Source: a virus. From it: 64,000 nt of DNA. The notes under the pieces are model-generated. The model made no database searches and was not told where the DNA came from. It saw only the letters and a list, made by a program, of their open reading frames with translations. Both the position numbers and the translations under genes were made by a program. Positions 13,631 through 13,761 of the stretch are shown piece after piece. The DNA is taken from positions 53,837-117,836 of the IMG/VR virus record IMGVR_UViG_3300044797_000185; one strand, given 5' to 3'. Position 1 is the stretch's first letter; each line of letters starts with the position of its first letter.

Positions 13631-13659
13631 TTGACAGATTGTTATTTACCTGCTATACT
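13631..13659 (+). promoter_or_regulatory. sigma70 promoter, extended -10, driving the structured RNA
   Basis: TTGACA-N17-TATACT, TGC before -10; predicted +1 near G13666. Confidence 0.85.
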
Positions 13660-13665
13660 TATTTT

Positions 13666-13761
13666 GAGGAGTCAATGTGGGTTCGAATCCCACTTTTGCC
13701 ATTTGGCGAAATAGCTTAATTGGATACTGAAAAGGGAACCATAAGGCAAAGCAGCTCCTCA
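13666..13761 (+). ncRNA. Circularly permuted tRNA-like RNA (Y RNA/YrlA-like or permuted tRNA)
   Basis: Order: GAGGAGT strand, T-arm GTGGG-TTCGAAT-CCCAC, acceptor TTTTGCC/GGCGAAA closed by loop ATTT, TA, D-arm GCTT..AAGC, A, GCTCCTC pairing back to the 5' strand. Confidence 0.8.

Follow-up and report, generated by a model that had tools for sequence, protein, structure and literature searches.

What kind of RNA is encoded where the 3' half of a tRNA stands before its 5' half, the two acceptor strands are closed into a hairpin, and the strands of the anticodon stem form the ends of the transcript? We addressed this question for a 64,000-nucleotide stretch of viral DNA (the window) at the end of the IMG/VR phage record G000 (117.8 kb, 61% complete), and for one close relative (G001; 192 kb with terminal repeats, 100% complete). 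An earlier note on the window had described the locus from its sequence and had offered three readings: an orphan Y-like RNA, a non-chargeable tRNA decoy, or a permuted tRNA matured by the phage RNA ligase Rnl1. A chance pair of decayed tRNA halves was named there as the outcome should these fail.

A tRNA body with permuted halves behind a consensus promoter

The element occupies positions 13666-13760 of the window and consists of a terminal stem, a T-arm, a hairpin-closed 7-bp acceptor stem and a D-arm (Table 1). The permuted halves, the arms and the terminal-stem ends were all recovered, in sequence and in fold, where the earlier note had placed them, with the tRNA 3' half upstream of the 5' half; the acceptor strands likewise pair at seven of seven positions, with one G-U, across a joining loop of four nucleotides (A plus UUU). 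The minimum-free-energy structure (RNAfold) was exactly the proposed four-helix fold (z = -2.4), and a descriptor made of T-arm, closed acceptor, D-arm and terminal stem matched once in the real 117.8-kb record and in none of 60 Markov-simulated genomes. Scans of G000 and G001 with the descriptor gave one copy per genome and no further copies. A second, weak YrlA match at window positions ~10845-10944 turned out to be an ordinary tRNA pair and was rejected as an extra element.

ARAGORN and Rfam called no tRNA on the native sequence, and the element lacks the uninterrupted cloverleaf, complete with anticodon loop and free acceptor end, that defines a tRNA (RF00005). Once the two halves had been exchanged in silico and joined through a dummy anticodon loop, ARAGORN called a canonical tRNA, both from the G001 copy and from the window copy freed of its 23-nt D-loop insert (13724-13746).

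The promoter proposed upstream also held up: its -35 hexamer TTGACA and TG-extended -10 hexamer TATACT agree with the consensus at 11 of 12 positions, and G13666, the first base of the stem, lies 7 bases past the -10 hexamer at the predicted +1. Sites of the form TTGACA-N17-TATAMT numbered 10 on this strand of the window (0.34 expected), the element promoter being one of them. They constitute, judging by their consensus, a clear class of predicted early promoters for the host polymerase, and so many near-identical sites on one strand make it very likely that the element promoter is real and read by that polymerase. This strong predicted promoter is positioned such that transcription would start at the first paired base. 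The ten promoters begin, on the + strand, at 6706, 8902, 13631, 15132, 16723, 21009, 27015, 48729, 49302 and 58675, and nine of them carry TG one base before the -10 hexamer.

Table 1 Features of the element, its promoter and the adjoining RNA (window coordinates).
Feature	Position	Strand	Remarks
Sigma-70/sigma-A type promoter	13631-13659	+	TTGACA 13631-36, 17-nt spacer, TG 13651-52, TATACT 13654-59
Terminal stem, 5' strand GAGGAGU (anticodon-stem analogue)	13666-13672	+	Begins at predicted transcript start
Variable region CAAU and T-arm GUGGG-UUCGAAU-CCCAC	13673-13693 (T-arm 13677-93)	+	Rfam alignment, fold
Closed acceptor: UUUUGCC 13694-700, A73-like A, UUU, GGCGAAA 13705-11	13694-13711	+	7/7 pairs, one G-U at 4:69
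U8 A9, D-arm GCUU...AAGC, loop AAUUGG[23-nt insert 13724-13746]CA, A26	13712-13753	+	Sequence, fold
Terminal stem, 3' strand GCUCCUC 13754-60, then single-stranded tail ACAAAUUU(U)	13754-13769	+	Fold; tail compared with G001
Motif X, separate structured RNA of about 85 nt	13774-13854	+	10 members, covarying helices
Motif X P1	13774-80 with 13819-25	+	Helix
Motif X P2	13786-92 with 13799-805	+	Helix
Motif X P3	13831-35 with 13850-54	+	Helix
Motif X candidate 7-bp pseudoknot	13809-15 with 13841-47	+	Pairing of invariant cores
Shine-Dalgarno AAGGGAG and ATG of CE4 polysaccharide deacetylase gene (13875-14597)	13864-13877	+	No terminator between RNAs and gene

Conservation of the elbow and covariation of the stems

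The G001 genome carries a single-copy ortholog (L005:5400-5475), in which the T-arm stem, the D-stem, the D-loop core, U8A9 and the inner five terminal-stem pairs are identical to those of the window. Its terminal stem is GUGGGAGU/GCUCCCAC, with outer pairs that differ from the window on both sides, and its acceptor is CUGCUGC-C(UUCG)G-GCGGCGG, which departs from the window by two-sided changes at three pairs and one-sided changes at three more, all of them still paired. Covariation at a homologous locus, which the earlier note had put forward as a check, is thus present as compensatory changes in both the acceptor and the outer terminal stem. The D-loop in G001 is the canonical 8-nt AAUGGGCA, with no 23-nt insert, and the tail CACAAAUUU is kept although the sequence further downstream differs. 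Another phage has a third "simple" element (L028), located where a tRNA array ends. The T-stems are identical in all three, and the T-loop is UUCGAWU in G001 and UUCGAGU in L028, a difference of one base. Three simple members are known, one of them a true ortholog, and the covariation thus draws on few sequences: protein-anchored scans of viral contigs returned G001 and no further orthologs, a pattern specific for the tRNA-like structure matched only G001's own contig among metagenome contigs, and no DNA-level relative was found in the phages collection.

Gene order around the element is shared by the two genomes (helicase, metallophosphoesterase, CE4 deacetylase, an ORF, GT2 and small ORFs). 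Within this shared order the element has two different places: in the window it precedes the deacetylase, whereas in G001 it follows GT2, a shift of 2.6 kb. The next gene in G001 is an 80-aa ORF, and a consensus promoter lies immediately upstream of the element as in the window. The 240-nt leader before the G001 deacetylase was not homologous to the element and had no significant structure (z = -0.37). These comparisons establish, at the level of sequence, that the elbow is under purifying selection and the stems under structural selection. They identify the element as a real, selected, single-copy RNA gene for a class-I tRNA body that is complete in its acceptor, D-arm, T-arm and elbow residues.

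Relationship to the tRNA-like module of YrlA

A covariance-model search, also suggested beforehand, gave YrlA (RF02553) as the sole meaningful Rfam match, with 29.3 bits for the window and 31.2 bits for G001 against a gathering score of 69, and made no Rfam tRNA call. The alignment spans the 7-bp stem, the T-arm, the closed stem and the D-arm, i.e., the tRNA-like module only. YrlA was likened by its authors (Chen et al. 2014) to a circularly permuted tRNA with a closed acceptor stem (PMC4201824). Like the element, it has an end-formed stem, a variable region, a T-arm, a hairpin-closed acceptor and a D-arm in the same order, conserves T-loop, D-loop, U8 and A14/G18/G19 residues, and is also found in phages. 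The module order (T stem-loop, closed acceptor stem-loop, D stem-loop) and the tertiary-contact residues are present in the window RNA, and G001 agrees; the locus very probably encodes a real structured RNA of YrlA-type topology.

We compared the element with other closed-acceptor tRNA-like RNAs, about 30 of which were collected by two pattern scans of viral contigs. None of these phage RNAs, whether or not linked to a gene for a TROVE (Ro60/Rsr) protein, reached the Rfam gathering score, which therefore does not discriminate in phages. The element differs from YrlA in being transcribed under a promoter of its own, at the start of an mRNA operon, and in carrying a 23-nt D-loop insert. The YrlA module folds as a tRNA, with an unknown effector thought to bind the elbow (bioRxiv 10.1101/312249; PDB 6CU1), and was proposed by Hughes et al. 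to be a competitive inhibitor of an anticodon nuclease (PMC7790460).

A probable free tRNA mimic and the rival reading as an mRNA leader

We lean towards reading the element as a Ro60-independent tRNA mimic of YrlA type, probably a stand-alone and abundant early RNA, and consider it rather likely that it acts as a free RNA and not as a gene-specific leader. The host polymerase would initiate at the first paired base and give a stable early RNA of about 100 nt, with a 5' end set by initiation and a 3' end set by cleavage, either within the conserved tail ACAAAUUU or through the adjoining motif X. The flush, base-paired triphosphate 5' end, together with the tRNA fold, would resist 5'-end-dependent decay. 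The T-loop/D-loop elbow would be the working surface of a tRNA look-alike that can be neither charged nor cleaved, and this look-alike may occupy a shape-recognising host or phage factor: a defence nuclease targeting tRNA, RNase P or another tRNA-processing enzyme, or PNPase. That G001 caps its acceptor with C(UUCG)G speaks for the closed form as the functional state. The tRNA-like domain of tmRNA, the 3' TLS of plant viruses and mascRNA similarly engage tRNA-binding factors through elbow and acceptor shape; they keep a free, processed or charged 3' acceptor end, whereas the element has none.

A specific role as decoy or competitor is a tentative suggestion, against which it counts that an RNA without an anticodon loop would compete poorly for anticodon-reading nucleases. 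If a tRNA-shaped decoy were confirmed, it would be a new type of countermeasure beside phage tRNAs and Rnl1/Pnkp repair against tRNA-targeting defences. More speculatively still, there may be a Ro60-independent phage class of anticodon-less, acceptor-capped tRNA bodies, made early and at high level as uncleavable decoys and here paired with motif X as a releasing element. The phage encodes Rnl1 (60537-61667; PF09511, 70 bits), Pth2 and a metallophosphoesterase adjoining the element, and so appears to invest in tRNA and RNA repair functions.

The main rival is a cis-acting 5' leader, in which the tRNA-shaped domain would shield an mRNA from 5'-end-dependent decay (RppH with RNase J1 or RNase E) or boost its translation; we regard this as unlikely, though it deserves the most weight among the alternatives. 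No terminator-like site was found in 13660-13875, the region between the RNA and the next ORF, which counts against a free RNA since the element may stay the 5' end of an mRNA. Furthermore, the Shine-Dalgarno sequence in G001 begins 9 nt past the terminal stem, and in both genomes the stem starts at the predicted +1 with zero unpaired 5' nucleotides. Stabilisers of 5' ends are well known in Bacillota, and a Bacillota host is hinted at by promoter and Shine-Dalgarno style and by PolA and Rnl1, both about 30% identical to proteins of Bacillus phages (distant, Herelleviridae-like). The host searches themselves gave no match in a GMP-reductase scan of genome contigs and mostly viral clusters in a protein atlas.

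However, 5' protection would need no more than a plain hairpin, and here the tertiary-contact residues are kept while the stems drift. The genes that follow the element are unrelated in the window phage and G001, and L028 belongs to a tRNA array instead of opening an mRNA. That the element stands directly behind a consensus promoter at both sites, with different genes following, indicates a self-contained unit and not the private leader of one gene, consistent with the free tRNA mimic favoured here.

Absence of the Ro60 motif and of a Ro60 gene

The Ro60-recognition motif GNCGAAN0-1G lies within the first 12 positions of the YrlA model (PMC4201824), near the 5' end and inside a long terminal helix of YrlA. 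In the Rfam alignment, this motif was absent from both the window and the G001 RNAs: model positions 1-12 align to the -10 region upstream of +1, outside the RNA, which opens directly with the 7-bp stem. The element also lacks the long bulged Ro60-binding helix of YrlA.

The search for TROVE (Pfam PF05731), which the earlier note had found missing from the window and wished extended to the rest of the genome, gave 0 candidates in G000 (61% complete) and 0 in G001 (100% complete). No TROVE gene lay on the same strand within about 4 kb of the element, where YrlA would lead one to look, or anywhere in the complete G001. When all ORFs of at least 80 aa were searched without filters, using a profile built from 13 phage Ro60 proteins, the best E was 0.24. 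Among the genomes with closed-acceptor RNAs that are at least 90% complete, TROVE was present in six of eight (G001 counted in the eight), usually within a few kb of the RNA, and this served as the positive control for the search. The TROVE-linked RNAs have extra 5' sequence and a V hairpin, both missing from the window RNA. The YrlA of Mycobacterium smegmatis, which has a 7-bp acceptor like the element and like a real tRNA, differs in being bound by Rsr and encoded next to it.

A genuine Y RNA, which would tether Ro60 to an effector as YrlA does by means of a host Ro60 or a phage Ro60 diverged beyond detection, is in our judgement improbable. It would explain the YrlA topology and accord with the frequency of TROVE, usually adjacent, in the sampled genomes, and a Ro60 supplied by the host or too divergent for HMMs is conceivable: the Rsr of a Listeria phage was detected by HHpred only (PMC12282133), and the existence of a TROVE-less subclass in a complete genome (G021) makes a trans-encoded Ro60 conceivable as well. 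Against it stand the alignment of the Ro60-motif positions to the promoter, a terminal stem of merely 7-8 bp, and the failure of the phage-specific Ro60 profile to find TROVE.

Among the readings of the earlier note, an orphan Y-like RNA comes closest and is supported by topology, the sole Rfam match and the missing TROVE gene. Two features that define Y RNAs were looked for and not found, and the element is best read as a variant of the YrlA-type tRNA mimic that does without Ro60; because the GNCGAAN0-1G motif is missing as well, we would not class it among the Y RNAs. Ro60 is what defines a Y RNA, and the element is a natural tRNA-like module without the Ro60-binding part. Its presence in a complete genome where no Ro60 gene was detected suggests that the module can probably work alone. 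At about 95 nt, it also offers a minimal RNA with which binders of the YrlA tRNA-like module could be sought.

We also observed a second TROVE-less subclass of closed-acceptor RNAs, with a 5' ACAGCAA motif and a location within large phage tRNA arrays. Its loci on IMG/VR contigs are L085, L088, L111, L119, L121, L151, L169 and L177, the last of which has ACCA as its acceptor loop. TROVE was not found in the genomes of this subclass, including the complete 167-kb genome G021.

A permuted tRNA precursor or a chance arrangement as unlikely readings

Circularly permuted tRNA genes occur in Cyanidioschyzon merolae, other algae and one archaeon. They resemble the element in that the 3' half is upstream and a short intervening sequence joins the acceptor strands. 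They keep an anticodon loop split between both ends, whereas the element has no anticodon-loop residues, and they mature through a circular intermediate with a splicing endonuclease and a ligase, whereas the host of the element is bacterial. A split or permuted precursor would here require an RNase P cut 5' of G13705, trimming and CCA addition, with optional ligation by Rnl1, to give a chargeable or two-piece molecule.

In its favour, the acceptor of the window copy (7 bp, with U at -1, G1:C72 and an A73-like base) has the look of a good site for RNase P. This enzyme cuts the YrlA of M. smegmatis, whose acceptor stem is likewise 7 bp and to which CCA is added (PMC4201824), and the phage encodes Rnl1. 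The G001 stem, however, is closed by G-1:C73 and a UUCG tetraloop and would be a poor RNase P substrate; cleavage is therefore not a conserved requirement, and the UUCG cap argues against obligatory processing of the kind seen in M. smegmatis. Anticodon-loop residues are missing at the ends, the tail ACAAAUUU giving no U33/R37-type loop in either genome; Rnl1 cannot join the triphosphate that a primary 5' end carries; and no bulge-helix-bulge or other splice signal was seen by eye. Maturation by Rnl1, as the earlier note had imagined it, thus has its ligase gene but conflicts with the flush stem at +1, the lack of anticodon-loop residues and a junction of 4 nt or C(UUCG)G, and we rate this explanation as very doubtful.

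That the locus is a non-functional pair of decayed tRNA halves or a tRNA-dimer remnant near a promoter by chance is hardly credible: YrlA-type RNAs probably derive from tandem tRNAs and tRNA dimers yield false YrlA matches (PMC4201824), but here the acceptor strands pair together across a 4-nt loop, the arrangement did not arise in any of the 60 simulated genomes, and an ortholog that keeps all four helices through compensatory changes refutes the accident.

Motif X, a conserved RNA of phage tRNA arrays

The 93 nt between the element and the deacetylase Shine-Dalgarno sequence are absent in G001, and they matched a stretch within the tRNA array of Myxococcus phage Mx1. This segment contains a separate structured RNA, motif X (Table 1), of which a covariance model and a pattern scan found 10 members in all: the window copy, OR576727.2 ~48760-48852 (L205:1494-1586) and L206-L213. 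Two-sided changes affect 12 of 25 helix pairs across the 10 members, a value reached by 0 of 500 shuffles, and the invariant cores CAUAGCGUUCAGGGAGAG and UAGAGUGAACGUA could pair as a 7-bp pseudoknot. The members mostly lie inside or abut phage tRNA arrays, and in L211 motif X exactly fills the slot between two tRNAs. The close relative G001 has no copy.

No Rfam 15 family matched motif X on this strand, and its core words were not found in the literature searched; it is thus a strongly conserved RNA of phage tRNA arrays without an Rfam 15 match. Lax filters over 105 nt likewise gave no Rfam match to HDV-like, hatchet, pistol or twister ribozymes, and on reading, the helix order was judged not to fit an HDV fold. 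One may reasonably guess that it serves tRNA-type transcripts as a ribozyme or processing element. Motif X may be a self-cleaving or processing element of tRNA arrays that releases the tRNA mimic, in which case its processing would give the mimic its 3' end in the window phage.

Two further observations concern the surroundings of motif X. A 13-nt complementarity joins 13818-13830, in the P1 3' strand, to 18638-18650, the 5' arm of a hairpin sequestering the Shine-Dalgarno sequence before gene 18670; it is unproven as an interaction, about 0.5 such matches being expected by chance (an estimate for a 250-nt region against 128 kb, both strands). In L209 and L213, tRNA-like sequences with extra inserts and no ARAGORN call lie directly 3' of motif X.

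Features of two other tRNA genes of the phage

The tRNA-Thr(UGU) gene of the window (10886-10985) contains a 28-nt hairpin insert right after the anticodon, which is too short for a group I intron and is lacking in the G001 ortholog (L008:1661-1736). Small inserts have thus been acquired in two tRNA-type genes of this phage, tRNA-Thr(UGU) and the D-loop of the tRNA mimic, neither of them in G001. A long variable arm brings the tRNA-Ile(UAU) gene (10775-10864) to about 90 nt; it is kept in G001 (L008:1551-1642), which indicates a stable trait and not an insertion.
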